A stretch of 35,604 bases of DNA from Stramenopiles sp. TOSAG23-2. Lineage: Eukaryota. A program made the translations under genes and the position numbers. Under the pieces are notes generated by a model, which saw only the letters and a list, made by a program, of their open reading frames with translations, ran no database searches and had not been told where the DNA came from. The stretch is from contig LT649342.1 in the NCBI GenBank assembly GCA_900128395.1, forward strand, positions 1 through 35,604, written 5' to 3'. Shown here piece by piece: positions 3 through 29,336 of the stretch (positions within the stretch are counted from its first letter, which is position 1; each line of letters starts with the position of its first letter).

Positions 3-3000
3 GCAATTCAAAAATATGCAGACATGTTAAATAGCGCACTTACAACAGACCCTGCCGTTAATGGGGCATCAGTATTATTTTGTCAAGCAACTACATGCGT
101 AGCTGATCTTGCTGAAGTCGTTCCGGAAACAGTTGGTCCAACATTTTCAACGGAGGATTCAATCCGTCGTTTAAAATCCTGGCTTTCAAATACTAATGAA
201 GAGTTACGAACAGCAGCTGCGAGAGTATTAAAATTAACCGTTCGGTGGATCCCAGATAAGAATTTATTGCAATTGACAGATTTCTTATTGACAAATGCTA
301 AAGATAATTCTCCAAGCAAATTAACTGCAAAACATGGTTCCTTGCATGCTTTAGGCAGTATCGTTGTCGGTTTACAAACAGAAATATGCCCGCGTGTCAA
401 GATTGTAAATTGTATTATAGACGAAGTGAAAAACGAAACGAAGAAATCTCCCCCAGTTGTTTTAATGGCTGCATGCGATTCAATCGGCAGTATCGGCAAA
501 GCTGGTTGCTTGACAAATGCTGAATCTGTCACTACCGTAGATGCATTGATTAAATTGACAAAGTCAAAAACGGAGGAAACAAATAAGTTAGTTGAACATG
601 CTGTAGTTGCAATAGGCGATGTTTGCGAAGCGCAACAGCAACCGCGACAGGAAGCAATTGATGGTATGTTTAAATTGCAATTAAATAAGTATGAAGAAAT
701 ACAATTTGCTGTTGGCGAGACGTTGTCCAGAATTGGTATGGCAGATGCGAGTATGAATAAACGAAAGCGTGAGGATGATAATAATAATAATAATGCAAAG
801 GAATTGAGGGTTGTGGAGGATGGTGAAAATAAAGCAGATGAAGACGCAAAACCAGTATCAATTATGGCAACGTTATTGCAAAAAATTATGGATACTATTA
901 AGGACGCAAGACCTGTCGTTCGCACTTCAGCAGCAATATGGATGTTGTCAATAGTAAAATTTGGTGGAAGTGACAATGCCGTTCTTAAGCGTTTGAAAGA
1001 TTTACAGGCTGCATTTACGTTACTTTTAGGCGAACGTAGTCAATTTTTACAAGAATTAGGCGGTAAAGGCTTGTCATACGTGTATGATTTGGCTACGGAG
1101 AAACAGCGAAAGACGTTGTTATCATCACTTGTACGCGCATTTTCAAGCGGTAAAAGGCAGCAAGTTGAAGGTGCATCCGTTGATATTTATGGTGAAGGTG
1201 GACCAGCTGGTGCTAATTTAGCGGAAAGTGGTGCAGAGAGCTACAAACAGATGTGCGATGCTGCGACAGATATGGGTAATCCAGCGTTGATATACAAATT
1301 TTTGTCATTGTCATCTGATCATGCACAATGGAACTCCCGGCGTGGTGCCGCATTTGGAATGGTCGAAGTAGCTGGTGAGTCTGGCTTAGAGGCTATGCGA
1401 GCACAGCTTGGTACCATTGTCCCTAGATTGTATAGAAATAGATTTGCACCGGATACGAAGACACGTGTTGCTATGCATCGATTGTGGGAAGCATTAGTTG
1501 GAAAAGATATGAAAAAAACGGTTGATAAATACTTCGGCGAAATTGTAAAAGCAACTTTGCCAGCACTTGGTCAGCAAAAGTGGCGTGAACGACAAGCTGC
1601 ATGCGAGGCATTGAATGACATACTTAGTATTGGAAGAAAAGCGGATGAAGTTTTGCCGTTTTTGAATGAATTATGGTCCAGCGCAATGAAAGTTGGGGAC
1701 GATATCAAAGAAAGTGTTGCTTTGTCAGGTATGAAATTGATCAAATCTTTGGGGAAATTATCTGTTCGCCTGTGTGATCCAAAACAAACGTTAAAGACGA
1801 AAGCATCTAAATGTTTTGCATCCTTGTTGCCATTCTTTGTTGATAAAGGAGTAACAGATGCATGTAAGACAACAAGAGCGCTTAGCATGCATTTCTTAAT
1901 CAAAATTATTCGTGCAGCTGGCCCTTTGCTCCGTGACCATGTACCAGATGTTGCCCCTGTTTTGTTGGAATATTTATCTGGCATGGAATCTCAAGATTTA
2001 GTATATTTACAATTTCATGCTGATAAAATGAATATAACAGCGGAACAGCTTGAAAATTTAAGAATTCAAGCAGCACAAAATGGACCTTTTGCCGAGGCAT
2101 TGAATTTATGTTTAGAACATGTAGATAAATCTGGTATGGAAAAACTTGTACATTCATTGTCGCATTTAATTCGTAGTGGTACGGGGCTTGCCACTCGTTG
2201 TGGTACAGCAAATTTTATTACAAATCTTGGAGTGCAAAAACCAAAATGGTTAAAGCAACACGCCGGGACAAATTTATTGAATCCCTTGGCAAATGGTTTG
2301 AATGACCGTAGTACTACTGTACGACGTGCATATAGCCGTGCAATTGCCCACGTCGCTCGATTATCTAAGAATTCTGCTGTTAGAAAATTAATACGACGAA
2401 TTACGGATCAATTTAATAGGGCTGACCCTTCAGATGCTGGCGATAATGCAAGACATACTAGTGGAATGGTCTTTTTAGCCTTGGCAAAAGCAGCTCCAAA
2501 CAAATTGAAAAAGCGTATAGGTGAAATTTTGCCATTAGTTTACATGGCAAGATTCAATAAGAATGAAAATGTTAAAAAAACCTATACGGAAGTATGGGAA
2601 CTGGTCTCGACAACGACTGCAGCTAGTGTTCGAGAACATTTCAAAGAGATCACAACGTTGATGTTGGAGTGTTTAGATGCCTCGTCATACGAAACAAGAC
2701 GACAAGGTGCAGACGCATTATCAGAAGCAATTGAATGTGCTGATGGTGAATCTGCTGGGGAATATTTAGAAACGATTATCAATGCATTAACGAAAGCTTT
2801 GTCTGGTAGATATTGGGATGGTAAAGATGCAGTGTTGCGTGCCGTAGTTTCTGTTGTTAAATTTTGCGATAAGGAAAACAAAAATAGTAAAAAAGAAGGT
2901 GACAACAATCAAAATGGACCTCAAATTGATAAGAAAAATTTAGATCAATTAATCGATTTAATGTTACGTGAGTGTAAACGCAAAGACAATGATAAATATG

Positions 3001-3584
3001 TTAGGAATGCGGTTGATTCTACTGGTAAATTAATAGAGGCTTTGAAAGGCCATGATTATTATCAGCGTGTATCTACTATTATATTGGAGATTGAAAAAAG
3101 GGCTCGTGAAAAAGAACCAGTCTTACGCGCACGTACAATTGAATGTTTAGGGCGTTCGTTTCCAAATGAACAATTTGTATCATCTCAGGAAAAATGTGGT
3201 GTAGCTTTTATGAATTTGTTGTCTGAAAGTATGGGTGCTGCCGTATGGCGCGTACGCGTTAGCATCTTAACTGCTGTAACGAATGTATTAAAAAAGATCC
3301 ACCCCAACCATTCCGAATCAGCAACTATGTTATCAAATGTAACACAAATATTAGAAATTGGACATAAAGATTTAAAATATCATCAAGTTAGAGGCGAGGT
3401 GGCAAGGGCGTTGTTAACGGTTGCAAAAAAGGCAGAGGGTAATGACCAAGTTAAACAAATGTTTCTGTCACAACAAGAAAATTTTAGAAAATTTGCAAGG
3501 GTATTAGCAACTGATACAGATCCAGATACATCACAAAAAAGTGGTCAAGCAAGAGATTTATTTGGTAAGATATATGGGTTTTAA
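3..3584 (+). CDS. ECM29: Proteasome adapter/scaffold protein ECM29 (HEAT-repeat), C-terminal ~1190 aa; 5' end lies outside the window
   Basis: HEAT-like helical repeats with ECM29-typical segments: LQAAFTLLLGE..QFLQELGGKGLSYVYD, YKQMCDAATDMGNPALIYKFLSL, WNSRRGAAFG, IVPRLYRNRFAPD, WRERQAACEALNDIL. The frame is open from position 3 (no stop before the ATG at 24), and known ECM29 proteins are about 1800 aa. Confidence 0.9.
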   Translation, partial: AIQKYADMLNSALTTDPAVNGASVLFCQATTCVADLAEVVPETVGPTFSTEDSIRRLKSWLSNTNEELRTAAARVLKLTVRWIPDKNLLQLTDFLLTNAKDNSPSKLTAKHGSLHALGSIVVGLQTEICPRVKIVNCIIDEVKNETKKSPPVVLMAACDSIGSIGKAGCLTNAESVTTVDALIKLTKSKTEETNKLVEHAVVAIGDVCEAQQQPRQEAIDGMFKLQLNKYEEIQFAVGETLSRIGMADASMNKRKREDDNNNNNAKELRVVEDGENKADEDAKPVSIMATLLQKIMDTIKDARPVVRTSAAIWMLSIVKFGGSDNAVLKRLKDLQAAFTLLLGERSQFLQELGGKGLSYVYDLATEKQRKTLLSSLVRAFSSGKRQQVEGASVDIYGEGGPAGANLAESGAESYKQMCDAATDMGNPALIYKFLSLSSDHAQWNSRRGAAFGMVEVAGESGLEAMRAQLGTIVPRLYRNRFAPDTKTRVAMHRLWEALVGKDMKKTVDKYFGEIVKATLPALGQQKWRERQAACEALNDILSIGRKADEVLPFLNELWSSAMKVGDDIKESVALSGMKLIKSLGKLSVRLCDPKQTLKTKASKCFASLLPFFVDKGVTDACKTTRALSMHFLIKIIRAAGPLLRDHVPDVAPVLLEYLSGMESQDLVYLQFHADKMNITAEQLENLRIQAAQNGPFAEALNLCLEHVDKSGMEKLVHSLSHLIRSGTGLATRCGTANFITNLGVQKPKWLKQHAGTNLLNPLANGLNDRSTTVRRAYSRAIAHVARLSKNSAVRKLIRRITDQFNRADPSDAGDNARHTSGMVFLALAKAAPNKLKKRIGEILPLVYMARFNKNENVKKTYTEVWELVSTTTAASVREHFKEITTLMLECLDASSYETRRQGADALSEAIECADGESAGEYLETIINALTKALSGRYWDGKDAVLRAVVSVVKFCDKENKNSKKEGDNNQNGPQIDKKNLDQLIDLMLRECKRKDNDKYVRNAVDSTGKLIEALKGHDYYQRVSTIILEIEKRAREKEPVLRARTIECLGRSFPNEQFVSSQEKCGVAFMNLLSESMGAAVWRVRVSILTAVTNVLKKIHPNHSESATMLSNVTQILEIGHKDLKYHQVRGEVARALLTVAKKAEGNDQVKQMFLSQQENFRKFARVLATDTDPDTSQKSGQARDLFGKIYGF

Positions 3585-3822: not shown

Positions 3823-4344
3823 TCACTCATCATCGGTTCCTCTCCATTTTTTAAAAAGTGGCCTAATGCTCCTATCCATTGTCCAGTCTACAAAATGATC
3901 GATTGGATGTATGATTAATGGTATTGCTAATAAACCAACTGCAGTTGGTCCCCAACGTTTTAAAACTGGTGGTAACTTTGGCATTTTTTTGGTTCCTGCA
4001 GTACTTATATCTACTAATTTATGAATAACAAAACCTGGTATTATTACACTAGCAAATGATTGCCATAATAATGTATCAACAGCAGCTTCAGCAATTGCCA
4101 TATTATCTCCATTCGTTTTTTCATTTGCTTTACCAGCTTTATCGTATGCATCTAAAAAGACATAGGTAAATGAAACCCCATATGATGGTAAAACCATTTT
4201 TGGAAAATTCGGTCTAAATGCTTCACCAAGTTCATTTGCATATCCCATGTACCTTACATATGTGTCGCGATATATATCTACAGGCGGTGGTGGTCCGCTG
4301 CCCTTTTCACTATTATTATTTACATTATCCGTTGGTATTGTCAT
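3823..4344 (-). CDS. MTFP1: Mitochondrial fission process protein 1 (MTP18 family)
   Basis: Signature DIYRDTYVRYMGYANELGEAFRP, plus DTLLWQSFASVIIPGFVI and PTAVGLLAIPLIIHPIDHFVD. The start is likely the ATG at 4344 (MTIPTDN); the upstream ATG at 4404 runs through TA-rich UTR-like sequence. Confidence 0.93.
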   Translation of the reverse strand: MTIPTDNVNNNSEKGSGPPPPVDIYRDTYVRYMGYANELGEAFRPNFPKMVLPSYGVSFTYVFLDAYDKAGKANEKTNGDNMAIAEAAVDTLLWQSFASVIIPGFVIHKLVDISTAGTKKMPKLPPVLKRWGPTAVGLLAIPLIIHPIDHFVDWTMDRSIRPLFKKWRGTDDE

Positions 4345-4826
4345 GACTGTAATTGCTTCTATATATATATTACGTATAATTTCAGATGTAAAACGACGTA
4401 TCATTCTTCTTCAAAAAAATGTAGATATATATTATTCTATACGAGAGGGTTTACCAGGTTAGCTTTCCTGTGGGAAAACTAAAACGTAGATTTGTTGGAC
4501 CAGGAGGAAATGCCTCTGGTGTCCAGAGTAAGAGAATTACCAGGTAGCCACAGTATTAATAGCTAGTAATAGCTATAGTTGTATTATAATACGTGTGAAT
4601 TACCACACAGTACCATCACACAGTAGCTAAACCCCTTTACTCATAATGATGATTGAATATATATTCCAATTTGTGTTGTGTTTTTTTCATATGATACAGA
4701 ACAATTCATAGTTGTCTATGTCAATTGTCGTCTATACTTTCATTTCGTTCAAATACAATTTAAAAACAAGCCATGTCTGGTCGTGTAAATAAATATTCCA
4801 TATTCGGTAAAATAATTAATATCAGG

Positions 4827-7800
4827 ATGAATGTCAATATTTTATTGCTTTGTTGTATTTTGTCGTTATTATTCCAACTGAAAAAAATAGTTGGATTTGA
4901 ACTTACGTTAATCCATGATGCAGATACTAGAGGTGGGATCTTTGAACATGATGGTGATGGAGATCTATGTGAAATGACTGATCTCAATTCAACTGAAGCA
5001 AAAATAGTTGAGACAGCCAATACTGGAGCCACAAAATGTGCAGGTGGGGCATCTTTCCGCCATACCTTTTTTCAGAATGTAAGAAAAAACAAAACGTATC
5101 CAAACCCTGTTATTATTTCAAAAAGCCAATTATTTTTTGGCTCAGAATTATATTCAGCTCTATCGTCTACTCTGAACCAAACACATGCTGCAACGCATAT
5201 TGCAAAATATTACACTGGCCCATGCTTTTACGATGCATTAAGCATTGACAATTCGGAATTTTTTTCTGGGCCAGATGCATTTGGAAGGTATATAACTAAT
5301 CTTCCAGAGTCAACTGGCGTAATCGATACCTATATTGAAGTTAATGCGACTGATTTTTCTGCAAACCAAGGTCAAGAAGTGAAAGCGAAAGTGTCCAAAT
5401 ATAAAGTAGTCACTCATACTGACTATCCAGTAGCAATTATGGCCTCAGCCGACTTTCGAATACTATATAAAAGTAATGCTGGACTTTCAATTGTTAATAA
5501 CTATGATGAGCCGAATAAAGATAAGAAAGGATGCATACCATGCACTAATAGTTTTTTGCTAGAATTATCAACTAAAATTAAAAAACAATGGGTGGAAATT
5601 AAACAGTCGTATCCAAATTGTAAGGTGCTTATATTTATTTCCAGCTTAACTAGAGATGCAAATAAGGTACTAGCTAAATATGTTGAAGAAATTGATGTAA
5701 TTGTTGACTCTGATTCAGATAAACCTGTTGAATATGTTATGAATGATATTTCATCTCGAAATGTATCGCTTATAAATTCAGTGTGGAGAGACAAGTTAGG
5801 TGATAAAGATGATACGCAAGAACATGGACGTTCTGCAGGAGTTTTTAAAATATCATTTGATGGGAATGGTTACTTATTTGATAACATTACCGTAGAAAAC
5901 GTCTTGTTAAACGCAAATAGTTCTAACATTCGCCGTGATGGTTCATCACTGTCTCAAATGACAAATGATTATAAATTTATGAAAGGATGGGAAAGTGGAA
6001 CTTTAACACAACTTTCCATTGATATTAATGGCTATGACGGGAAAAAATTTAACGGTCAAAATTTCTTTCAAAATGATGGTTGCAGAGCAAGTGATTGTGA
6101 AATGGGGCGATTAGTAACAAGTGCTTATTTGCATGCTTGTAAATCTCGAACAAATGCCCCTTGTGATGTAGCTATTGTTAATGCTGGAAGCATTAGAGGC
6201 AGTTTTTCGAAAAATACAGATGTGACAAATTTAGACGTCGCACGAGCAACTCCTTTCGATGACAATCTTGTTTGTGCCACTGTGAGCGGAAGTTTTTTAA
6301 GAAGTTGGATCGAACATTCACTGTACAAATGGGACGAATCAGCTGGCACAAAAGAAGGAGGTGGTGATGTCTCAGGTAAATTTTTGCAAACTCAAGGATT
6401 AAGATTTGTATGGAATCCATATGAAGGGAAAATACTTAATATTTTTGTACAATCAGAAAAAACTTGGTCTTTATTAAAAGACGATGCAGAGTATAAAATC
6501 ATTGTTTCAGAATTTATTGGTCTTCGTGGGGGTGACGGATTTTCGAATTTACCAGCGGATTCAAAAGTTAGTCAAATCGACACTAGATTACAAGTATCAT
6601 TTAGTAATTATTTAAAAACTTTAAGTAAAGATTTCAGTTTTAAATCATTTGTAGATTCCACAGAATGCTTAGGGGCAAAAACAAGTGATAGATTGTTAAG
6701 AATGCAAAAAGGTTGCAGTAGCATGCGAACGAATCAAACGAAGTTGTATCAAGTCCCAACTAGCATAAATATTGCACTGATGTTGCCTAACAGTCAAACT
6801 AGTCGCGGAATTAATTTGTTCGCATTATTCAATTATACTATAGAATTGTTGAATAATGAAACAGCGAAACAAAGTAAACCGCCGCCGCCATTACGATTAA
6901 CGATACATACCACAAACGGAAATTCAACTAAAGCAAATAGTATTCTACAAAATTTAAAATCCTATACAGACGCAAGCTCTGCTGTTATACTTATGGGCCC
7001 CCTTTTGAGTAAAGTTGCTGATGGAACAGACGATCCAGCGTTAACGAAAGGTATTGTCAAACATGCAATTACAGATATTTTATCAACAAAGTTTACTCAA
7101 AAGATTGAAATTCCTATCTTCACCATGACCTTTGGTGCTTCGGATGATTCTTGCAATGATGATATAGATAAATATAGCAAATGTTCTTTAACTGGTGGTG
7201 GGAGCTTATTCCGCCGTGTTTGTTACACGGAAATGGCGCGTTATAGAGCGTTACATGATTTAATTTTGAAACAGAATTGGGCTGGGAGTCTTCGGTTGAT
7301 TGAAAAAGGCTCCTTAATGACTGGAGAAGAGCCGGTATCAGATACATTGATATCAAAAATAAATTTAAAGACTTTTCCAATAATGAAAAAATACCAAAAA
7401 AACGATGTGTCTACTTTATGTGATGAAGGAAAAAATCGCGACAACGTTTTTATTCTTGGCTTGGAAGATCAAGATATTAAATTATTTCTCAAGGACATAT
7501 CATCAAACAGTCGGTGTAATTTTTTGTTTAGCCATACACACGATAAATATAATAATGTATTTCTATTGTTGAGTTCGTCAGGCATAAATTACTTTAAAAC
7601 AATGTCGCTATCTAATAAAGTGTATACAGTAGCAATTGGTAGATACGAGCCAAAGTTTCTGAAAATATTGAGCAACAGCAATGTGGATATGGCCATGGTT
7701 TCAAACATTACAACAGATGAAACGTTAATTAATGCATATGAATCAATAGTTTATGCTTCTCACGTAGCTAAATCTGTTATAGATCTGGAAAAGGGGTTTA

Positions 7801-10139
7801 ATGATATTAAGTATATTGTGGGGGACACGAAATTTAAGCAGGGTATCGAAAAGGTAAAAACCCATCTCGATTCAAATCATGAATTGGAATTTGATTTGGA
7901 CAATGGAAATAGAGTTGCAAAATTAGAACTTATTACGCCTGGACCAAAAATTGAAGGCTATTGGACTGCAAGCAAAGGTTTACTGTGTGATTCTTGTCCA
8001 GAGGCGTTTAAAGACAACTCGCAACGTGGTAGATCAAGCAATGGTAATAATAGCACGTTTTTTATTGCAATGGTAGTAGTTATTAGTATCAGTACGTGTG
8101 CTATTGCTGGTCTCCTCTTGAAATGGTGGAATTTACATGATATTGTTTTTAATTCTGCAAATGCGTGGAAAATAGATGCAGATGAGATTCAATTGAGCAA
8201 AATGATTGGGAAAGGAGCTTATGGTAGTGTGTGGCGAGGAACGTATAATTCCACAACTGTTGCTATCAAGACATTTGAAAACAGTGGACAGATCAGCACA
8301 GAAAATTTCATAGCAGAGTTTGTGAAGCTTATTGATCTTCGACATAAGCATTTAACTCAATTTGTAGGCGCAGTGTTGGAAACTCGTGCTATAATAACAG
8401 ACTTTATGGAAAGAGGAGATTTAACAAATGTGCTGTTCGATGATAGCAGACATATCACCGGAGGAGAAAAAATTGAATGGGCTTTGCATATAGCTCTTGG
8501 ATTAGAGTATTTGCACTCCAAACATGTCGTTCATTGTGACATGAAGACTGCAAATATTCTTGTCGATAAAAATTACATATGCAAAATTGCAGATTTTGGA
8601 TTGTCGACGTTTAAAAATAAGAAAAAATCTGGGCGTGCTAGTGATTCTTTTAAAAAAAATTTGGTCACCATGGTTGGAGGTTCGGCAAAGGACGTTTTTG
8701 GTGAAGGACCAAAAGGTACTGCCTTGTGGCTTCCACCTGAAGTTATACGCGGGGGAGATTATGAGTTGGCAGGAGATGTATTTGCATATGGTTTAATTAT
8801 TTCTGAGTTAATAAACAGAGTTGAAAATTTTAGCAAAAAAAAGGAAACAATGAATCAATATAAAATTACAACAATGGTTGAAAAAGAAAGTTTAAGACCA
8901 ATTTGGGTTGACAACGTGCCGGATGAGGAAGTGTTGGATGGTCTCAAGGATGTAGCAGAAATGTGTTGGAAAGATGATAAGAACAAGAGACTTACTCTGC
9001 CTGAAATATGTAAATGTTTAACGGAATTATCTGGAAGACCACGACACAGTACCGTACAAAGTGGCGTTAGCCAAGGCGTTTCAACATCAGATATAGAAAT
9101 GGTCCGGCAAAGATCATCTGATGTTATGATGGGCGTCGTCGATGAGTATCTATATTCCAACATAATCGATAAAAAAGAATGGTACATCTCCAATCACAAA
9201 CAGTTAGAAAAGCAATCCAAAGCTGGTGGAACTGTTCCGTCTTATCACGTATTAAAACCGAACAATAAGACCACCCATTTTCCAAAATTTGCAACATTAT
9301 GTCAAAATATGAAATTCAGATTAGGAAAGAAGTCGAAAAAAATCAAACAAAACATGAGACTTATAACTAAACAAATTGAAACCTTATCATCTTTAAATCA
9401 TCCAAACATGTTGGAATTTGCCGGTATATCGCTAACTGCAGAATTTGATGGGGGTATGGTTTTTTTTAAATTGCCTGGCAAAACCTATGACTTGAATACG
9501 TATATGAATTTAAAAAATCATGTCTGCCGATTTGATTCTGCTAGGGAGACTTTGCATGGGTTTCTTGAAATTTGTAGTGCTATTGCATATCTTCACAAAC
9601 TTGATATTGTACATGGGAATATTTCATGTTATTCTATTCTAGCAACTGATCTTGGTAAGCTGTTCTTATCTAGAATTGAAGATCGGGTGATATCTAAAAA
9701 TGTCTCACAGGAACATGATGGATTAGTCACAGATGCAAAGGGCTTTTTACCTCCAGAGGCATTAATATTAGATCATTTTGTAAGATCTTCAGATATATAT
9801 TCATTAGGTATTTTGATGTGGTATTTCCTTACAAAATGTGTTCCATTTAAAGACAAAAGCATATCTGAAGTTAATCGTCAAGTTGTTAATGATAATTTGA
9901 GACCAAAATTGACTATTAAGGATGTAACAAATGCAAATAAATATGATAAGAACTCTAAATTTTCGTATATCGATCTTATGCAACAATGTTGGGAACAGAA
10001 ATTGGAAGATCGTATAAGTTTACAAGAGTTGGTATCAACCATAAATGATTTTGTTAAAACGAAATCAAAGTCTATCATAGTCATAGATGATACGGATGCT
10101 GCTGCAGACGACGAGAAGGAGAAGACAATGATGATATAG
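4827..10139 (+). CDS. Single-pass receptor kinase: signal peptide - degenerate 5'-nucleotidase (metallophosphoesterase + 5'-nucleotidase C domain) - type-1 periplasmic-binding/Venus-flytrap domain - TM - TKL kinase - pseudokinase
   Basis: Signal peptide MNVNILLLCCILSLLF (ATG 4827; alternative 4773). 5'-nucleotidase motifs LTLIHDADTRG, CAGG, YDALSIDNSEF, CRASDCEMG, DVAIVNAGSIR, PFDD, FLQTQGLR, GGDGF. Flytrap-like INIALMLP, VILMGPLLS, IPIFT, LFRRV. TM FFIAMVVVISISTCAIAGLLL. Kinase IGKGAYGSV, VAIK, HCDMKTAN, DFG, GTALWLPPE. Second domain with HGNIS, FLPPE, SDIYSLG and CW. Confidence 0.88.
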   Translation: MNVNILLLCCILSLLFQLKKIVGFELTLIHDADTRGGIFEHDGDGDLCEMTDLNSTEAKIVETANTGATKCAGGASFRHTFFQNVRKNKTYPNPVIISKSQLFFGSELYSALSSTLNQTHAATHIAKYYTGPCFYDALSIDNSEFFSGPDAFGRYITNLPESTGVIDTYIEVNATDFSANQGQEVKAKVSKYKVVTHTDYPVAIMASADFRILYKSNAGLSIVNNYDEPNKDKKGCIPCTNSFLLELSTKIKKQWVEIKQSYPNCKVLIFISSLTRDANKVLAKYVEEIDVIVDSDSDKPVEYVMNDISSRNVSLINSVWRDKLGDKDDTQEHGRSAGVFKISFDGNGYLFDNITVENVLLNANSSNIRRDGSSLSQMTNDYKFMKGWESGTLTQLSIDINGYDGKKFNGQNFFQNDGCRASDCEMGRLVTSAYLHACKSRTNAPCDVAIVNAGSIRGSFSKNTDVTNLDVARATPFDDNLVCATVSGSFLRSWIEHSLYKWDESAGTKEGGGDVSGKFLQTQGLRFVWNPYEGKILNIFVQSEKTWSLLKDDAEYKIIVSEFIGLRGGDGFSNLPADSKVSQIDTRLQVSFSNYLKTLSKDFSFKSFVDSTECLGAKTSDRLLRMQKGCSSMRTNQTKLYQVPTSINIALMLPNSQTSRGINLFALFNYTIELLNNETAKQSKPPPPLRLTIHTTNGNSTKANSILQNLKSYTDASSAVILMGPLLSKVADGTDDPALTKGIVKHAITDILSTKFTQKIEIPIFTMTFGASDDSCNDDIDKYSKCSLTGGGSLFRRVCYTEMARYRALHDLILKQNWAGSLRLIEKGSLMTGEEPVSDTLISKINLKTFPIMKKYQKNDVSTLCDEGKNRDNVFILGLEDQDIKLFLKDISSNSRCNFLFSHTHDKYNNVFLLLSSSGINYFKTMSLSNKVYTVAIGRYEPKFLKILSNSNVDMAMVSNITTDETLINAYESIVYASHVAKSVIDLEKGFNDIKYIVGDTKFKQGIEKVKTHLDSNHELEFDLDNGNRVAKLELITPGPKIEGYWTASKGLLCDSCPEAFKDNSQRGRSSNGNNSTFFIAMVVVISISTCAIAGLLLKWWNLHDIVFNSANAWKIDADEIQLSKMIGKGAYGSVWRGTYNSTTVAIKTFENSGQISTENFIAEFVKLIDLRHKHLTQFVGAVLETRAIITDFMERGDLTNVLFDDSRHITGGEKIEWALHIALGLEYLHSKHVVHCDMKTANILVDKNYICKIADFGLSTFKNKKKSGRASDSFKKNLVTMVGGSAKDVFGEGPKGTALWLPPEVIRGGDYELAGDVFAYGLIISELINRVENFSKKKETMNQYKITTMVEKESLRPIWVDNVPDEEVLDGLKDVAEMCWKDDKNKRLTLPEICKCLTELSGRPRHSTVQSGVSQGVSTSDIEMVRQRSSDVMMGVVDEYLYSNIIDKKEWYISNHKQLEKQSKAGGTVPSYHVLKPNNKTTHFPKFATLCQNMKFRLGKKSKKIKQNMRLITKQIETLSSLNHPNMLEFAGISLTAEFDGGMVFFKLPGKTYDLNTYMNLKNHVCRFDSARETLHGFLEICSAIAYLHKLDIVHGNISCYSILATDLGKLFLSRIEDRVISKNVSQEHDGLVTDAKGFLPPEALILDHFVRSSDIYSLGILMWYFLTKCVPFKDKSISEVNRQVVNDNLRPKLTIKDVTNANKYDKNSKFSYIDLMQQCWEQKLEDRISLQELVSTINDFVKTKSKSIIVIDDTDAAADDEKEKTMMI

Positions 10140-10385
10140 TAACACACTCTAATTTGATAGAGTGTACGATCGTAAAATTTTTGGGCTTTTTAATAAAGTG
10201 TATCATTACTTTGTCTTACATATTTTAAAAATAATAAAAAAATACGACGTATATGCATTAGTATTTGTGCATTTTTAATATGTTCGTACGAAGTATATTA
10301 TTGAGATATGATACTTCTCGTCGTATCGTGTGTGTATGATATGATATATCTCAGTGTCTCTTCTTTTCAAAAATGTTTTTCTTAT

Positions 10386-12113
10386 TTATTCGGTCCAAAT
10401 TGATGTACAATCGCCAAATTTATCACTACTTCCACAAATTTTACTTTTCGCATTAATATTCGTATCTACTTGTACAATAAGATCTTCTTTAATAGAATTC
10501 TTATCATCGTTTTGTTCCAGGTCGTCTTTTTTGTACTTAGCTTTTGTACCGGAAATTGATTGAGTAATTTCACCATTTAAAATTAGACCAGACTTTAAAT
10601 CAACTTCAAAAAAACCAGTTTCTCCACCTTCGAGATTGTGTGTTGATGCAGACGAAATTAATGATGGATGAAATGCCTTATTACTTGTATCTTCCGTCTT
10701 TTTGTTTTCTAAAGGTGATTCTTTCGTATCTAGTTGAATGCGTGCAACCCATCGATAATCATCGCCAATAGATTTTTTCCGCATTTCCATCAATGAAAAT
10801 TTTTCTTTATTTACATGTGGTACCGGTGTCTGTGTTATTATTTCTCTTTCCCATACATCACCTCTTCCAACTTTTTCTGTCGGAAAAATAGTTAATCGTT
10901 TCTTCAATTGATCCTCTAATAAATAATTATATCCTAGTAAATCAATAATGACTTTTTTGCCCCTTTCTTCATCGCTTTCCGATGGTGATTCATCGTAACT
11001 AAATGCATCTAAACCATGTCTCATCGTTGCTAGAATTCCTTCACCACCACCATCAGCTTCATCCAATGCTATTAAATCGCTCACTAGACGATCGTAGTCT
11101 TGCTTACGTATCATCACAGCTGGTATTTTAACTTTTTTCGATGTACCACCCATAAACACCAAATCTCGAGTCTCCGTATCGCCAACAATAACGCCAATTG
11201 CGCCACTATCTTGTGCTAAAATCAATTTATCTGCAAAATTACATTTACCACGTTTCAATAAGACAATTTTTCCTTCTACTGCATTTGTAAATACACATTG
11301 TGGACCTTTCCATCGACTTCCAGGTTGGCCTATATTTGGTGCACATTTACACCCATCTCGGGGTGTTCCTAAAACAACTTCAGCTTTCACAGTACCCGAT
11401 GGTCGATGCACAAAACGGGTACCTAAACAATCAATCGATTCGTCTTCTCCGCTTGGTCCTGGTATCGTCAATACAGACTTCAATTCCATTGGCAATGCAT
11501 CCATTTTATGAAGCTCGTTGAAAACTTTTTTATGTATTTCATTTGTTTCAGCCTTCAACAACGTACCATTCGTTGCTAAGAATGCTTTAAACGTTTCACC
11601 AACAACTACTTGTTCCATTTGACGCCACAAACGCGCTTGAAATTTACTACCATCCTCTTGCAGCGATATAATTTTAAATTGCTTGCACGTAATCAAAACA
11701 TCTGCGCCGTTTTCTAGTATATCGTTTACAAATAATTCAAATTCCATTTTAATAATTTGTTTTTGTTCTGCAACTTTTTTTTTCATAATTTTCGTAGAGA
11801 CAACTTGCTTTATATTTTCACCAAATGTATATGTATGATTTTTTTCCAAAAGTAAACGTAGTTGACGCCGCTCATGATCCATAACATCTTTGGAATGTGA
11901 TAATTTAAACCGATCGTCTCCGCTTATGACAATGTGCCCCCGATATGACGTGGGACCAAAAAATTGTTGTACGATTAATAATAACGCAAATACAACAGTA
12001 CCAGCAATTATTATATTTTTATTACTATTCGTTAGTTTGTTTTTACTTTTTATCCTTGATGGTGCTTTAGATGGCGTACCATTTTCCATTTCCAGTTCCA
12101 TCGGGATTGGCAT
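10386..12113 (-). CDS. Type II membrane protein with a protease-associated (PA) domain inserted into a DUF6263-like beta-rich scaffold
   Basis: N-terminal TM IIIAGTVVFALLLIV. PA domain VEGKIVLLKRGKCNFADKLILAQDSGAIGVIV..KIPAVMI. The flanks (VVGETFKAFLATNGTLL; FPTEKVGRGDVW; GFFEVDLKSGLILNG) resemble bacterial DUF6263; that part of the call is less certain. Confidence 0.7.
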   Translation of the reverse strand: MPIPMELEMENGTPSKAPSRIKSKNKLTNSNKNIIIAGTVVFALLLIVQQFFGPTSYRGHIVISGDDRFKLSHSKDVMDHERRQLRLLLEKNHTYTFGENIKQVVSTKIMKKKVAEQKQIIKMEFELFVNDILENGADVLITCKQFKIISLQEDGSKFQARLWRQMEQVVVGETFKAFLATNGTLLKAETNEIHKKVFNELHKMDALPMELKSVLTIPGPSGEDESIDCLGTRFVHRPSGTVKAEVVLGTPRDGCKCAPNIGQPGSRWKGPQCVFTNAVEGKIVLLKRGKCNFADKLILAQDSGAIGVIVGDTETRDLVFMGGTSKKVKIPAVMIRKQDYDRLVSDLIALDEADGGGEGILATMRHGLDAFSYDESPSESDEERGKKVIIDLLGYNYLLEDQLKKRLTIFPTEKVGRGDVWEREIITQTPVPHVNKEKFSLMEMRKKSIGDDYRWVARIQLDTKESPLENKKTEDTSNKAFHPSLISSASTHNLEGGETGFFEVDLKSGLILNGEITQSISGTKAKYKKDDLEQNDDKNSIKEDLIVQVDTNINAKSKICGSSDKFGDCTSIWTE

Positions 12114-13704: not shown

Positions 13705-13966
13705 AATAAATCACTACTATTAATATACTAAAAAAAAAATAATAAAACATTGAATAATATAATTATATTATATTCAAATATGATAATTTTACCAGGTTTA
13801 CTAAACAATTGAAAAAAGAAATACATATACATCATATATATATGTAAATGAACAATCTCTACCACATATATCAATCATCTACTTGTTTTTAAATTTAATT
13901 TCTGTTTACTGGTAGTATTTTATTTGGTGTTGTTTGGTACAGTTATTAAATATATATATATATATC

Positions 13967-16900
13967 ATGCCTACTCTTGCTTGGAGTTGTAAACAATGCA
14001 CATATTTAAATAATACAGAAGGTGCTTGTAGTATGTGTGGCTATAAACCGGAAGTAAAACAAGCCTCTGATCAAAATAAAATTACAGAAGCATTTGACTG
14101 TGTACGCGTGAGGTATGACATTTATGGAGAGGTGAGATGGACTGATTCAAGAGATGCGTTTAAAATTGCTGCGGAAAATATACACACGGAAGAGGCGTTG
14201 GATTTTTGTAGTAAATATATGGGTCACGTTATTACTATTATGAGTAATCAAAAAGTTGGTTTTAACCATCAATATAAAGATTGTTTCATCCTTGCCTATG
14301 AATTTTGTGCGCAAATTATAGCGCATATATTGCAAAATAAACTCGAACCACATTTTAAAGTGTTAGAAACGTTACCGCTTCTTTTTGCTCGTGCGCAAAG
14401 TCAAACGTCGAGTAACCTGTATAGAAGCCAAATTGGTGCTAATGTACGTAGGACATGTGTTCAAAAATTTTTGGATTTGAATGGATTTAACTTGCTCGCT
14501 GACACAGTTGCATATATTTCGCCAGAGGGTTTATCAAAAATTTGTCCTTTACTGGAACAATTGAAATATATTAATGAGGCAAAAGATAGTAACGTTAGAA
14601 TTACAACTTGTCTATATGAAAGAGCAACAAAGATTGACCAGGATAGCTTGCCTAGGAATTGCGGCTTTTGGTGCGTTGTTTTAAGAGAACTCATGTCATA
14701 TTATTCAGATAATCAAAAGATGGAAGAGGCTATACGTCAACACTATTATAGATTAATAAATTACACATTGCAGTCTGACATTTTGAATAATCGTTTAATG
14801 GGTTTAGAAAATGTCGAAAAAGTTGTGGAAGACAATATTGATGAAAATTTTGTTCGTAAATGGCTGTTTCATGACATCAAAGTGCTATCGTTGTTATTTA
14901 ATGATAAAATTCATGAGCAAATAGTTGCAAAATCAAGAAATTTGATGAAAGCATTGATTGGCCGTGGATGGCTGGAAGTAAAAGATGTCTGTCTTATTTG
15001 GGACGCTGCCTTAGGAAAGCATGGTGCGCTAGTAAAAGAGATATCAGAATTGCTTGCAGTCATTGCAATGGAGGACCCTGACAACAATAGATATAGAAGT
15101 GGTAGATACGGTGCATCAAAGATGTATAATAATAACAGATCGCATTTTAACAACCATAGTATGGATAGAAGTTTATGGCAGCAGCGAAGTCGGGGAAATA
15201 ACAGCAATCATCCGATTAATCTCTTAGGAGATAATAATAATAAAAATAATAATAATAATAATCAATTTAATCAAGGGCAAGAAGATGGAATATCGCTGGG
15301 ATTATTGCGGCATATGTATTCAAGAATAAATGGGCATCCTACGGAAACGATTGTATTTATCGATGCCGTTTTGCGATATGATAATGGTGGAGAATTTGAA
15401 TCCACTAATACATATAGCTCTTCTGCTGGGTCGGGGAAAAAAAAGAAAAAAAGTATTAATGGAAAGGCTCAAGATTTATTTTTTGGCACGACTGATCGTG
15501 CGAACGTTACAATTAACTGTTTGGAATTTTTAGTTTTACGAATTACCACCATGAATGAAGACATCGAACGAAAGAAAATGCTTTTTAACCTGTACAAAAA
15601 AACTATCGCTTCCACTGGTGGGGAAAATTTCTTTTACCCTTCCATGTGTAATCAACTTGAATACGTTCGTGATGCAGGGAACAAAAATCCTGATGAAGTG
15701 AAAAAAAGTACATCCGTAGCGTTGATTCAAGTGTTATTGGAAGTAAGAAATGAGAAAAGGATGTACCACAATCCTGACAAAGGTTTGAATATAATTATAA
15801 AAACAGAATCGGGAGGTGTTGATTTGATTGAATTCTTCTTGAAAGAATGTAAATCGTGTTCAGCAAGACTTGCGAAGTACAAAGATGAAACTGCTATGGA
15901 AGCAATAAGAAAGCGATTGGATAGTTTGGGTTTTATTGCAAAGAACAAAAGTCTATTCAAATTTGCACATATTCAAGATCTTTGGGACTCCTTTTTCAAA
16001 TGTCAAAATAGCAAATTTATGGATATTTTAATGGATTGGCTTTTTGTCGGCCGTGATGACGGTAAAAAAAATCAAGATTCTGAAGTTGATGCATATTTCG
16101 GTGATGAAGTAGCATATCGTATATTGGTAGATTTATTCGGTAGCGAAACTGGTCTGCCATATTGTGATACAAAATTAGGTTTTAAAGCATTCAAGAATTT
16201 CTTCTTAGGTTTGAACCAATGGACTAATCTTGGTATTATTAAGGTTGATAATAATAATGGTGGACAATCATTTCGATTTGTTGGTTTAGATCCTATCTAC
16301 AGCCCTCAGAAAAAAGTGAAAACAATTCATGGATTGGAAACTGTATGGAAGATATCCATGGAGTGTATGGACATGGAGGTTTTTAATTTAGCTAAAAATT
16401 TAATTATTGACGGTTGTAATGTACCGCATGACAAAAAAATAGAATCCCATAAAGATCCGGTAAAGATTGAGATTTTAAAGCGCCTCAAGTCTTTGCTAAT
16501 TGAAAATCATAACAATGAAAGTGCCATGGCAGTTCAAACTACTCAAAGGGCGTTGAGCATAATTCAAGACCTGCTTCAGTCCTTTTTTTTTAATGAAAAT
16601 GCTCTTGAAAATACTTCTTTGACAATATTAACACGTACGCATTATAAAAGCGAGAACAACAACAATAAGAAGAAACCGTACCGTTCCTCATTAATAAAAC
16701 AAGGTTATGCCTCTGCTGTATGTGAGATATACGATTTGTTATCATCCTTGTCGAAAACAGGAACTGTTTCGCATATTAAAATTATCTGGGATTTTTTAAA
16801 AAGTTTACCACCGCGTCCTTTAATTATGGAGGAATTTTCAAATGTTTTACAAATTGATGACGATTCCGCTTTTAGAAATGCTTTGCCAATATTCAACGTG

Positions 16901-19900
16901 TATTCCAGTGATATTGTTTTAAAGGTAATTCGTATTAAAATCATTCAAGCTTGTGTTGCTAATGATCATAATTTATTAATGTTATTATCGTCAAAACAAA
17001 GTTGTAAACCATGGTTACATAGTGTTTTACAAGTATGCTGTAGCAAAAAAAATGCTTTACAAAATAAATTGTCGTCGTCATCGTCCAGCAGTCATGTTGA
17101 GAACAATGCAGGGAATAGGAATAATATTACATTGTTGTTAAAGGAAACTGCAGTATCCATTGTTCACATAATGCGTTTGTTACAATTGCATATGGATAAT
17201 TTCACAATGGAGCCTGATTGGATATCATATTTAATTCAAATGACAAACACATGGGCAGATGATGAAGAGATTGTACATCTTAGTATCCAAATTATTTTTG
17301 ATAGTCACCAAGATGAGAAGAAAAAGAAAATGCTTTTCATTTCAAATAATTATTCATTCGTATTACGTAGTCTCTCCTTAGAAAGCAAGTTCATTGCTAT
17401 ACAAACTTATGTGAGCAATTATTTTCAAAGCGTAGTGAAAGAAACAGATGATGAAAAATTTTTAATTACTGCACTAAATAATTTTTCATTAGATCTAGAA
17501 GAAGGCAGATATTTATCATCTCAAGATGCATCCTTGTTTTTCAATAATTTAATGTCCGTGATCATGCAAATGAAAATGACATCTGAAAACGATGTGGCGT
17601 CAGATGTTGAAAAACACATTGTAAATGTACTTTCAGAAAAAATTGTTTTGTATTCGAAAAATTTAAGTGGAAAAGAACCATTTAAATGTATCACGGGTAT
17701 CTCCAGATGCCTATATGAGTGTTTGTCCCGTGATCCAAGCAACGAGAAGAGCGCTGCGATTAAAAACTCTATGCGTAGGGTTTCTTTCCTTGGAATGAAA
17801 AATGATCCGTTAGGTACACTATCAAATTTAATGGTTGGGATGTTCACCCGTGGAAAGTTGAGTTTTGAAAGCGTCGTTGAGGAAAGATTAGCAGCTGTGC
17901 AAGGATTGTGTGCATTGTTTCAATTATTTTCATGTGAGGATGAAAAAAAATGGGGAGAGATAATGTATCAGATTGGCCAATTTATCGATGAACATTTTCC
18001 AACAAAGGATGTTACTATGTCAAACAAGGCCAATTTAATGTTTAGAAAAACTCATGTCGGATTAAAAAATCAAGGCAATACGTGTTACATGAACTCTTTA
18101 ATACAACAATTATATATGATGAAGAAACCGTTTCGTGAAGACATACTAGCACTAGAATTGCCACGTTTGCTTTTAAAGGTAAATGACAATTCTCCATCTG
18201 GTTCGAAATCAAAAATTACTGAAAGTAGAGCTGGTGCATATAGAATATGTTATGAGCTTCAGCGAACTTTTCAATTTCTTGCTGGCAGTGATCGTCGCTC
18301 GTTTGATACAAAAGATTTGGTAAATGCATGTGAGCATTTGAAATTGTACTATAGTGTTACGGCGCAAAATGACACCCGCGAATTTTGCGATAAGCTTATG
18401 GAGAGTATGGAAACATCGAAAATTCAACCATTAACTAGATGTTTACACACGTGCTTTGGTGGTCAAGCAGTCGGTCAATCACATTTTAAAGAGTGTAATC
18501 ATTTATCTGAAACGCGGGATACTTTTACTACTGTGGAATTACCAGTGAAGGATATGCACACGTTATTAAAGGCATTTGAATCATATGTTCGTAGTGAGGT
18601 AATGGACGGGGCGGATGCTATCCATTGTGATAAATGTTATCAAAAACGCGTAGGTACTCGCCGTTCTTGTTTTGATTTAGATACCTTGCCAAAACTTTTA
18701 ATCATTCATTTAAAACGATTTGTAACTGACTTGACAAGTGGTGAATTGATTAAAGTACAAGATAGATTGGAGTTTCCAAATGAGCTGGATATGGCACCGT
18801 ACACGATGCAGTCATTAGATACTAAGTCTAGTACTTCTATCGAACCCAAACTTTACGATTTAAAGGGGGTTTTAGTACATGATGGAGATTTAAATATTGG
18901 GCATTATTATTCATACATACAAGATCGCGAAACAGGTAAATGGTATCATTTTGACGATGAAAATGTCAATCCATTTGAAAGTAGTAAAATAATGGAGGAA
19001 TGCTTTGGTGGTGGAGACAACGAAAAGAAGAGTGCGTATATGTTGTTTTATGAAGAGAGAGAGAGTTATAATGGTGGCAACAACACGCGGAATAATAATC
19101 ACATGATGATGTCAACAACAATGGACCTTACCTCGAATACATCTTCCTCAACATCTTCGTCTCTTGTTAAAGTTGTCAATACATCGATACGGAGAAAAGT
19201 TGTCGTCCATCGTGACAAGACTGCCATGTTAAAACAGCACGATCAAACAGGAGTAGAGAAACCATTACTAAATACCTCGTCTTCATCCAGCTTATCATCA
19301 AAGGCTTCCCATTTGCAACCAGAGAATGCTTCGGCTACTCCGTTGCTTCATATTGGTACCGTCCAACGCACCCGATCGTTATCATTTGATAACGATGTTC
19401 AAAATCAAAGTATTTTTCCGGTAATGAAAAAAAAATCACTTGGTCATGAAGGTCGTATTGCATCGTTAAAACGTGCTAGATCTGTTACCATAGAGCACAC
19501 TGCGGATACTTTGGATATTATGCAAACTGATGCTAGCAATAGCTATGATAATAATAATCGGATAAAGCGCAGAAAAATTGCTAACATAAATCATCCGAAT
19601 GCTTCTCAGTCTACAACCACGTCTACTTCACTAAGAGATCAAATTTTATCGGAACTCAAATTGGAGCCATACTCAACTTTAATACGTTTAGATCATTACA
19701 TAGAATGTTTTTGTTCTATTTTAGGTCATTATTTAAGAACACCAGCAGCAACAGAGCAGCAGCAACAGCACCTGCAAGTTGTCAATAATAGTGGATTAAA
19801 TACGTATAAGAACTGTTTTCAATTTCTGTTGATTTATTTCTTTAAAGTTTTAGTCTATCAAAAAGAAGCTAATTTAGAAAAATGGCGCAGCATGTTGAAC

Positions 19901-28541: not shown

Positions 28542-29336
28542 CTACTTCCAGGTTACAAATTTAGGTTCATTTTTTAATTGTTCTGCTGATTTTCTCCATG
28601 GTAATGTATTCATATGTGTTACTTCTCGATCTTTTACTAATTGCGTTAACGACTTGTGAAATGTTGCGCCTATTGGCACCATAGCTGGTGTAGGATTAAC
28701 AACATAATCTACGCATTTGGTAATTTCAGTTGCGTGTCTGCGTGCACTAAGTGGCTGGAATCCTGGTCCATCGGCGCGTCTAATAGAAGTACATGCAAAT
28801 TGTAAATCTGGGATTGTAGTAATAATAGTTTTTTTTCTTCCATACTTTGGTTCTTGTAACCATGACGATTCTGTCCTATGTGTAGCAGGTGGAGATTTGG
28901 TTGTGCCGTTTTGAAATTGATATGGAGTATAGTTCATTGTAGGTACAGCAGTGACATAAGAACGAGATTTCTTTCGTTCTGTATTAATAGGAGTTATCGG
29001 CAAGCCTTCAATTGTTGCTTTACCTATATTAGACAACCTAGAAGAGGAAGATCTTGAAGAGCCTATTGATGATGAGGCAACAGATAAATCTGAAGCAGGT
29101 GGTGTGTTGTCGTTCATTTTTATTCCTTGATATGCCAAAGGATGAGTGTTTTTCCAATCAGCTGCTTTTTGATCTCTCTGCTTTCTATGAATCCTTGCCC
29201 GGAGATATTTTGCATCATATTTAGATTTAGCAACAGCAGTCTTTTCTGCATTTAATGCATTTTCTAACTTTTCCAAGCGAAGTAAAATAATTTTTCTCTC
29301 GTCTATTGAAGATTTTCTTCTTACAGTTGCATCCAT
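28542..29336 (-). CDS. Hypothetical protein (N-terminal coiled coil, S/T/P-rich low-complexity remainder)
   Basis: 264-aa ORF with higher GC than its flanks; no family recognised. Confidence 0.65.
   Translation of the reverse strand: MDATVRRKSSIDERKIILLRLEKLENALNAEKTAVAKSKYDAKYLRARIHRKQRDQKAADWKNTHPLAYQGIKMNDNTPPASDLSVASSSIGSSRSSSSRLSNIGKATIEGLPITPINTERKKSRSYVTAVPTMNYTPYQFQNGTTKSPPATHRTESSWLQEPKYGRKKTIITTIPDLQFACTSIRRADGPGFQPLSARRHATEITKCVDYVVNPTPAMVPIGATFHKSLTQLVKDREVTHMNTLPWRKSAEQLKNEPKFVTWK

Follow-up and report, generated by a model that had tools for sequence, protein, structure and literature searches.

A receptor kinase gene with a pseudo-5'-nucleotidase ectodomain, a putative extracellular nucleotide sensor, in Stramenopiles sp. 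TOSAG23-2

Contig LT649342.1 of Stramenopiles sp. TOSAG23-2 (GenBank assembly GCA_900128395.1) was analysed over 35,604 nucleotides, the whole of which is referred to here as the window. At coordinates 4773–10139 on the forward strand the list of open reading frames (ORFs) and their translations shows an uninterrupted ORF of 1788 aa (stop codon included), which its sequence identifies as the gene of a single-pass receptor kinase with a pseudo-5'-nucleotidase ectodomain. We consider it reasonably likely that this ectodomain is a CD73-type module that has lost hydrolysis and has been kept as an extracellular nucleotide sensor on a type-I receptor kinase, and this conversion of an enzyme into a sensor is supported in silico by sequence comparison and by a structure model. 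The encoded protein (P0001 in all of the sets of relatives below) keeps two of nine metal-binding and catalytic positions and six of six substrate-pocket positions in both of the alignments examined. The stretch 4898–6545, which a sequence-only reading of this DNA had described as a nucleotidase ectodomain stripped of its catalytic ligands, corresponds to aa 42–591 of the ORF.

Catalytic and pocket residues

Residue positions were read against P0118, a library match that corresponds in essence to PDB 2z1a, the 5'-nucleotidase of T. thermophilus, and aligns end to end with human CD73. Two MAFFT alignments were built independently, one of 94 module segments and the other of 64 full proteins, and they agree at all 15 positions. 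We use CD73 numbers and take D36, H38, D85, N117, H220, H243 and N245 to be the seven dimetal ligands, H118 and D121 to be the catalytic His–Asp dyad, and R354, N390, R395, F417, F500 and D506 to be the substrate pocket of the C-lobe. In CD73 and UshA these six pocket residues presumably line the interlobe cleft and not the core, and in the enzymes the two aromatics are assumed to stack the base while the Asn, the Asp and the two Arg hold the ribose and phosphate. The catalytic columns of this ruler are validated by the 59 canonical sequences among our relatives, since each of the nine is kept in 56–59 of them; the seven metal-ligand columns are each kept in 57–59. The positions in the window protein are as follows, with the number of members keeping the residue in a 21-member non-redundant set of receptor-type relatives (described below) in brackets.

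4914–4931, forward strand: former motif I, HDADTR (canonical HTNDxH); D36 is D51, kept (10 of 21), and the metal-binding H38 is R53 (0 of 21)
5118–5129, forward strand: former motif II, SKSQ (canonical DAGD); the bridging D85 is Q119, a polymorphic position (2 of 21)
5247–5264, forward strand: former motif III, DNSEFF (canonical GNHEFD); N117 is N160, kept (3 of 21), the catalytic H118 is S161 (0 of 21) and the dyad D121 is F164 (0 of 21)
5637–5648, forward strand: ISSL; the metal ligand H220 is S291 (0 of 21)
5703–5720, forward strand: VDSDSD (canonical GGHSH/N); H243 is D314 (0 of 21) and N245 is D316 (3 of 21)
6081–6098, forward strand: CRASDC; R354 is R438, between the two Cys of a CD73-type disulfide loop (19 of 21)
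6180–6197, forward strand: NAGSIR; N390 is N470 (21 of 21) and R395 is R475 (20 of 21)
6252–6257, forward strand: PF; F417 is F495, the presumed base-stacking aromatic position (aromatic in 20 of 21)
6513–6542, forward strand: FIGLRGGDGF; F500 is F581 (aromatic in 20 of 21) and D506 is D588 (19 of 21)

Two of the seven metal ligands are kept and five are lost, and both members of the His–Asp dyad are lost. The motifs quoted in the sequence-only reading (HDADTR, SKSQ, DNSEFF, ISSL, VDSDSD, CRASDC, NAGSIR, PF and SEFIGLRGGDGF) are correctly placed at all 15 positions in the two alignments, and both of its claims about them hold: the metal and catalytic ligands are lost, with changes at seven of the nine positions, and the C-domain equivalents of the CD73 pocket residues are retained without exception.

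Profile searches are in keeping with the residues. Pfam 5_nucleotid_C matches aa 431–591 (E 1.4e-23, 84.2 bits against a cut-off of 23.6), and there is no match to Pfam Metallophos in the window protein even at E ≤ 1, a family that canonical multi-unit matches such as P0007 and P0009 do carry. In a phmmer search of the PDB, 5'-nucleotidases account for 24 distinct sequences at E ≤ 1, with 2z1a (2.6e-13) and CD73 entry 4h1y (3.5e-9) as the best matches. In these phmmer alignments NSEF falls opposite NHEF and SKSQ opposite DAGD of 2z1a and CD73, in N-lobe stretches that are not significant when taken alone. The window protein clearly descends from active 5'-nucleotidases and, to judge from its metal ligands, its dyad and the Metallophos profile, is predicted no longer to be one of them.

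Fold of the nucleotidase module

An AF2 model of aa 40–650, made from a 64-row alignment, has a mean pLDDT of 86.5 and a pTM of 0.88, with the N-lobe mostly above pLDDT 90. Foldseek finds 96 PDB matches to it at E ≤ 0.001, with 2z1a (E 6.3e-37, TMt 0.71) and some thirty CD73 entries at the top of the list, and among the latter the closed forms (TMq 0.55–0.61) are matched better than the open ones (0.45–0.48). Structural comparison with CD73 and UshA, one of the checks proposed in the sequence-only reading, gives the same two-lobe fold: with VIA-align the model superimposes on CD73 9r0d_B with a Z score of 32.9 (491 residues aligned, root-mean-square deviation 5.4), on 2z1a with 32.2, on NadN with 30.8, and on UshA and SoxB with 26–27. 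The N-lobe alone matches the N-domains of the cyclic-nucleotide phosphodiesterases 3jyf, 5eqv and 3gve (Z 24.5–25.3). The model retains the enzyme fold in full, C-lobe and N-lobe alike, the latter as a metallophosphatase fold that has no metal site.

A clade of receptor-type modules

An exhaustive HMMER search with aa 40–646 as the query gave 619 representatives at E ≤ 0.001, of which 77 reach 1e-10 and six reach 1e-30; all of the counts of relatives given here are drawn from the best 150 of these 619 matches, with 153 proteins in all. A word-index search for homologues of P0001 (aa 30–660) gave two matches among 7998 scored candidates, and the same search with P0045 (aa 35–560) gave itself and P0179. 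P0002 is 98% identical to the window protein and belongs to a cluster of 32 sequences, the fragments P0004, P0005, P0006 and P0010 share 53–70% identity with it, and the 1781-aa P0003 is an orthologue that is colinear end to end (33% identity over 1841 alignment columns).

For the residue comparison we required a full C-lobe match with at least 300 residues upstream, a rule that 94 of the 153 proteins pass; the other 59 are fragments, proteins cut at their N-termini, or arrays of C-lobes only. Eight or nine of the nine catalytic residues are kept in 59 of these segments, four to seven in ten, and three or fewer in 25. Removal of the near-copy P0002 and of P0023, P0034 and P0138, which lie inside canonical groups, leaves the non-redundant set of 21, all of them eukaryotic proteins. 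Conservation of the pocket across homologues had been named in the sequence-only reading as a test of its proposal, and it is found: the 21 members keep 119 of 126 pocket cells and 18 of 189 catalytic cells. When the 646 columns of the degenerate set are ranked by conservation, N470, R475, R438 and D588 all fall within the top 16; the two Cys around the R354 position are 92% conserved in that set, and the clade-wide motifs are GCRxx(D/E)C, NxGxIR, PF and (F/Y)xxxGGDG(F/Y), in proteins that are otherwise about 20–25% identical. At the old active site the H38 position is Arg in nine of the 21 members and the D121 position is aromatic in 16 (76%); a filter for clade-specific replacement residues across the 21 passed the D121-position aromatic alone. 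On these comparisons the window protein belongs to a broad and essentially uncharacterised clade of receptor ectodomains, in which the loss of catalytic residues with a kept pocket is more than chance and not a one-off decay.

The outputs to which the module is joined are varied. Pfam was run on 47 of the matches (5_nucleotid_C in the absence of Metallophos being judged at E ≤ 1e-5), and many of these proteins have 5_nucleotid_C and no Metallophos, joined to signalling domains:

7tm_3: P0013, P0018, P0020, P0037, P0045, P0050, P0055, P0061, P0106, P0110, P0139
kinase: P0014
ANF_receptor and Ion_trans: P0015
ANF_receptor and RGS: P0051
ANF_receptor: P0038, P0092
TIR: P0032
Ephrin_rec_like: P0019, P0038, P0150

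Within the 21 clade members the outputs are 7tm_3 in nine (P0013, P0018, P0020, P0037, P0045, P0050, P0055, P0061 and P0110), a kinase in three, and ANF_receptor with Ion_trans, ANF_receptor with RGS, ANF_receptor only, TIR and Ephrin_rec_like in one each; none was detected in four. The source names include at least one stramenopile from EukProt (P0013) and one MMETSP transcript (P0020). The nearest relative outside the kinase receptors, the 3328-aa P0015, has a dead nucleotidase followed by ANF_receptor (E 1.1e-53) and Ion_trans, and is an unusually built candidate for a ligand-gated channel; P0032 joins the ectodomain to cytoplasmic TIR domains and P0051 joins it to RGS, which are very different outputs. 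Tandem 5_nucleotid_C lobes with no N-lobes are present in P0011, P0012, P0016, P0023, P0027, P0054, P0149 and P0152; the 2537-aa P0012 has up to ten Pfam stretches of this kind, and such arrays consist of the substrate-binding lobe alone.

The pattern of conservation also bears on whether the pocket is kept for a nucleotide. The module could instead be a binding or scaffold domain for a protein partner, a glycan or an inorganic phosphate species, or could bind nothing and serve as a spacer or dimerisation arm, with the pocket residues stabilising the C-lobe. The pocket is conserved alike in active enzymes and in the clade, so that its retention is not specific to a sensor, and the substrates of the family are very diverse, including those of the UDP-sugar hydrolase UshA, the NAD nucleotidase NadN, the cyclic-nucleotide phosphodiesterases and the thiosulfohydrolase SoxB. 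We nevertheless think a scaffold role unlikely: the six residues presumably lie in the cleft and not in the core, they are among the top conserved columns of a strongly diverged clade while the catalytic columns adjoining them are free to drift, and a pair of base-stacking aromatics with two Arg and an Asn and Asp makes a nucleotide-shaped set.

Phylogeny and constraint

A quick maximum-likelihood tree of the full module (94 rows, 531 columns, LG+G4) has a branch of SH-aLRT 96 with 22 of the 25 degenerate rows on the same side of it, and P0001 falls in a 97% set of 19 that are all degenerate, grouping with P0002, then P0003, and then P0015. For the C-lobe columns, a search constrained to hold the 22 rows together reached a tree whose log-likelihood exceeds that of the free quick tree by 60.4 units (p-AU 0.911), and descent of the receptor-type module from one origin is the better-supported interpretation of these sequences. 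Outside the receptor clade, P0034, P0138 and P0023 (and in part P0117, P0119 and P0036) have degenerate catalytic sets within canonical groups, with the pocket mostly kept, and may be independent pseudoenzyme events. P0023 has tandem C-lobes (two 5_nucleotid_C stretches), and its row may be an alignment artefact and not a degenerate N-lobe.

Variation among near-identical proteins points the same way as the clade. Of 15 listed members of cluster 1, nine are full-length and were used (at least 90% identical), and 64 of 1794 alignment columns vary among them. Q119 of the window protein is K in the eight others and the neighbouring position 118 varies too (SKSQ versus SKTK); D314 is G once and N once, and its neighbour 312 also varies (VDSDSD versus VGSGSD). 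The former catalytic sites thus appear to drift, with two of the nine positions and their neighbours varying, and none of the six pocket residues varies among the nine proteins. The hypergeometric probability of at least two of the nine named positions being variable is about 0.03 as computed with 19 variable columns, the module having 17 substitution columns, or 21 when four insertion columns are included. The substitutions among these proteins cluster in the two former metal-binding motifs at 5118–5129 and 5703–5720, and a contig from public run X21 that covers 4881–5256 has six base differences within the 22 bases 5120–5141. In the comparison with P0003 the identity is 37% in the N-lobe, 41% in the C-lobe, 31% in the middle domain, 51% in the kinase and 38% in the pseudokinase; since the N-lobe is nearly as similar as the C-lobe and gives a high-confidence model, it is not decaying as a whole. 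The earlier preference for a pseudoenzyme receptor over general decay is therefore borne out in silico, by the selective loss throughout the clade, the constraint on the N-lobe and the receptor topology.

These substitutions also argue against the module still being an enzyme, whether through a rebuilt acidic metal site (D51, Q119, N160, D314 and D316) or through some other reaction. Five of the nine positions do bear possible oxygen-donor ligands. However, the dyad is gone (S161 and F164) and no metal-ligand His is left, two of the putative new ligands are the very positions (Q119 and D314) that vary among the near-identical proteins, the nine positions in P0003 read L, Y, H, N, S, F, K, E and K, and the Metallophos signal is missing. 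We regard retained catalysis as very improbable.

Architecture of the receptor

The window protein consists, in order, of a leader, the nucleotidase-like module (aa 41 to about 650), a second extracellular domain (aa 651–1094), a transmembrane helix, a kinase and a pseudokinase:

4773–4892, forward strand: N-terminal leader, with a hydrophobic signal sequence at aa ~14–40 and a second Met at aa 19 (Kyte–Doolittle windows above 1.8 starting at aa 14–24)
4893–5939, forward strand: N-lobe, aa 41–389, a metallophosphatase fold with no metal site (AF2 model and fold search)
5940–6647, forward strand: linker helix and C-lobe, aa 390–625, 5_nucleotid_C with the substrate pocket (Pfam, PDB phmmer, AF2 and fold search)
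6723–8054, forward strand: second extracellular domain, aa 651–1094, probably ANF-like (Pfam match of the orthologue, Atlas features)
8055–8123, forward strand: single transmembrane helix, aa ~1095–1117 (hydropathy windows of 1.85–2.58 starting at aa 1093–1101)
8187–9020, forward strand: protein kinase with intact motifs (Pfam PK_Tyr_Ser-Thr, aa 1139–1416)
9273–10082, forward strand: second kinase-like domain (second Pfam kinase stretch and motif search)

The transmembrane helix is the sole such stretch by hydropathy apart from the leader, and a hydrophobic leader is likewise present in P0004, an orthologue fragment, ahead of a conserved GF(D/E)(I/L)T..HDADTRGG. Pfam PK_Tyr_Ser-Thr matches two stretches of the protein (E 1.2e-66). 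The first has GKGAYG, VAIK at 1163, HCD at 1254 and DFG at 1274, with Src-family kinases as its top PDB matches (about 1e-29). In the second, HGN at 1614 replaces HRD and there is no DFG, and it is therefore a pseudokinase; the second kinase domain of P0003 is degenerate likewise. The order of an active kinase followed by a pseudokinase is the reverse of that in JAK. There is no 7tm_3 match and only one transmembrane helix in the window protein by Pfam and hydropathy, and no lectin family among its Pfam matches at E ≤ 1. With its leader, one transmembrane helix, and a kinase with the G-loop, the VAIK Lys, HxD and DFG, the predicted protein has the layout of a single-pass receptor kinase.

RNA-library contigs from three studies align to the gene at 5891–6041 and 7246–9807 (X1, poly-A), 7888–10138 (X3, cDNA) and 7819–10198 (X6, oligo-dT), with 95–100% identity and no joints, which fits an intron-free expressed gene. 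All of the organism-labelled public runs with near-identical sequence (20 of 22 rows) are marine or seawater libraries, mostly poly-A or cDNA metatranscriptomes, and the owner of the gene is therefore taken to be a marine microbial eukaryote. A heterolobosean amoeba, which the low G+C content and the long ORFs free of introns had first suggested, was discarded in view of these libraries.

The second extracellular domain is probably an ANF_receptor or type-1 periplasmic-binding-protein (Venus flytrap)-like domain. P0003 has a Pfam ANF_receptor match at aa 738–923 (26.0 bits against a cut-off of 25.4), in the region that is colinear with the window protein, and 20 of the 30 named matches of aa 651–1094 by Atlas features are to ANF_receptor/Peripla_BP_6 clusters (score 0.93–0.94). 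Aa 651–1094 of the window protein have no Pfam match of their own and no phmmer match in the PDB at E ≤ 10; alignment to four ANF regions with hhalign gives a probability of 3% (E 0.014), and the AF2 model, made from a 10-row alignment, is unusable (pLDDT 37.7).

This domain raises the question of which ectodomain part senses the ligand, as the ANF-like domain could be the true sensor and the dead nucleotidase a modulator of it, for example by filtering ligands, by acting as a co-receptor lobe or by capping it in an autoinhibited state. ANF domains are proven sensors of small ligands in class C G-protein-coupled receptors (GPCRs) and receptor cyclases, and P0003, P0015, P0038, P0051 and P0092 all have ANF_receptor after 5_nucleotid_C. 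The ANF assignment is weak for the window protein itself, though, and nine clade members join the nucleotidase to 7tm_3 with no ANF match between, so that in these the module stands in the place of the class C flytrap. We consider it rather improbable that the nucleotidase module is merely accessory in this way.

Proposed mechanism

The module lies behind a signal peptide, outside the single transmembrane helix and ahead of a kinase, and is thus placed as a sensor should be. We propose that an extracellular nucleotide or a close relative (a nucleoside, dinucleotide or nucleotide-sugar) would bind the C-lobe pocket, that the lobes would close on it in a Venus-flytrap-like manner by the hinge motion that the enzymes use in catalysis, and that this movement, alone or together with the ANF-like domain, would pass through the transmembrane helix to the kinase and pseudokinase pair. 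The ligand class, the closure of the lobes as the switch and the activation of the kinase are the parts of this scheme that we infer. A phosphorylated ligand is favoured because the two phosphate-binding Arg are kept, and the ligand is not narrowed to one compound, since members of the family handle AMP, NAD, UDP-sugars and cyclic nucleotides. A CD73-like dimer formed via the C-lobes would suit a receptor kinase; a homodimer prediction with two copies of aa 408–650 scored 0.01 against a mark of 0.32, a result that speaks neither for nor against such a dimer.

Several points weigh against a nucleotide sensor of this kind or the evidence adduced for it. The equal conservation of the pocket in active enzymes means that conservation alone is silent on what binds, and the requirements of the fold could account for part of the retention of the pocket residues. 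The roles of the CD73 residues are carried over from the structural literature, the pocket residues and R53 are placed by alignment and not by model coordinates, and the closed-like pose of the AF2 model may reflect training on CD73. Oxygen-donor side chains are present at five old metal positions (D51, Q119, N160, D314 and D316), so a Ca or Mg site is compatible with the sequence. As to the phylogeny, the full-module tree includes the catalytic columns (nine of 531) and has the receptor rows on long branches, the free quick C-lobe tree (194 columns) needs three changes for the 22 rows, and the 22-row group was named after the residue table had been seen. Finally, the RNA-library contigs lie mostly at 7246–10198 and cover the nucleotidase part at 5891–6041 only; presence in an RNA library is no proof of transcription, and the uncovered stretches 4773–5890 and 6042–7245 are uninformative.

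Comparison with known systems

The module shares with CD73 (NT5E), 2z1a, E. coli UshA and H. influenzae NadN the two-lobe fold over about 490 residues, the six pocket residues and 5_nucleotid_C, and with CD73 also the Cys pair around R354. It differs from CD73 and the bacterial 5'-nucleotidases in its few remaining metal and catalytic residues and the absence of a Metallophos match, and in being neither a free nor a GPI (glycosylphosphatidylinositol)-anchored enzyme: here it is the N-terminal module of a 1788-aa receptor kinase. Extracellular enzyme folds kept for binding after loss of catalytic residues have precedents in the carbonic-anhydrase-like domain of RPTP gamma/zeta and in the cholinesterase-like neuroligins, dead-enzyme ectodomains that bind protein partners. 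They differ from the present module in fold, and what is conserved in the module is its small-molecule pocket.

By architecture the nearest analogues are the Venus kinase receptors and receptor guanylyl cyclases, which likewise have a bilobed small-molecule ectodomain (of the flytrap or ANF type), a single transmembrane helix and a kinase-type output; the window protein, too, probably has an ANF-like domain, and differs in that its distal lobe pair is a dead phosphoesterase fold instead of a periplasmic-binding-protein fold and in having no cyclase. The nearest functional analogue, if our interpretation is right, would be plant P2K1/DORN1, described as an extracellular-ATP receptor kinase in which ATP is bound by a legume-lectin domain. 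Both would be single-pass receptor kinases reporting an extracellular nucleotide, but on that description the sensor parts are not homologous, as there is no lectin domain in the window protein.

The same kind of ectodomain has been seen on signalling receptors in a survey of choanoflagellate GPCRs, one sentence of which reports 5_nucleotid_C and Ephrin_rec-like domains on Glutamate-family GPCRs of choanoflagellates and other close animal relatives (bioRxiv 10.1101/2025.04.15.649019; eLife 2025, PMC12716839). The nine 7tm_3 clade members have the architecture reported there, and the window protein differs from it in its single transmembrane helix, its kinase and pseudokinase output and its extra ANF-like domain. 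In its passages on 5_nucleotid_C, a term that its main text uses once, that paper (PMC12716839) records the presence of the domain and says nothing of a loss of catalytic residues, of a conserved pocket or of a ligand. Searches of open-access papers and bioRxiv brought up no account of catalytic residues lost from such modules, of a pocket kept in them, of receptor kinases that carry one or of a proposed ligand.

Beyond what the sequence-only reading described, the present analysis adds that the ectodomain belongs to a widespread family whose outputs include GPCR, channel, TIR and RGS domains, that a probable ANF-like domain follows it and that the second kinase domain is a pseudokinase. Carried by GPCRs, channels and other receptors of many protists, the dead-enzyme module probably constitutes a kind of extracellular nucleotide sensor that has so far gone unrecognised. 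Extracellular nucleotide sensing by unicellular eukaryotes is poorly known outside P2X channels and plant P2K1, and if our interpretation is correct the clade would provide a receptor family that can be put to the test, with a ligand pocket that is predictable and point mutants that suggest themselves, as well as a likely ligand class for those orphan class C GPCRs that carry the module in choanoflagellates and other protists. It would also mean that the ectoenzyme that ends purinergic signals in animals (CD73) became a receptor elsewhere, a natural case of catalytic domain closure being reused as a signalling switch. Going further, and more tentatively than for the window gene itself, it is possible, though we would not yet call it likely, that dead CD73-like clamshells are a third, hitherto unrecognised eukaryotic family of purinergic sensors beside P2X channels and P1/P2Y GPCRs. 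One ancestral pseudo-nucleotidase with its pocket and hinge closure kept would then have been plugged in, as a Venus-flytrap substitute, to class C 7TM proteins, receptor kinases, ion channels, TIR and RGS across distant protists, and the window gene would be the kinase version, reporting dissolved nucleotides in seawater (from prey, lysis or kin signals).

Locus and neighbouring genes

The window is eukaryotic nuclear DNA, with a G+C content of 29–40% and long, unbroken ORFs. The genes around the receptor gene include the following:

3–3584: ECM29-type proteasome adaptor
3823–4404, reverse strand: MTP18
13934–20389: USP-type deubiquitinase
25835–28345: GT2/GT4 glycosyltransferase

The ORF at 29774–35077 on the reverse strand (1767 aa) has no Pfam family at E ≤ 0.01, and neither does that at 28542–29336, also on the reverse strand (264 aa). 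The convergent neighbour of the receptor gene, at 10386–12113 on the reverse strand, encodes 575 aa that contain a protease-associated (PA) domain (E 9.5e-16) and match DUF6263 weakly.

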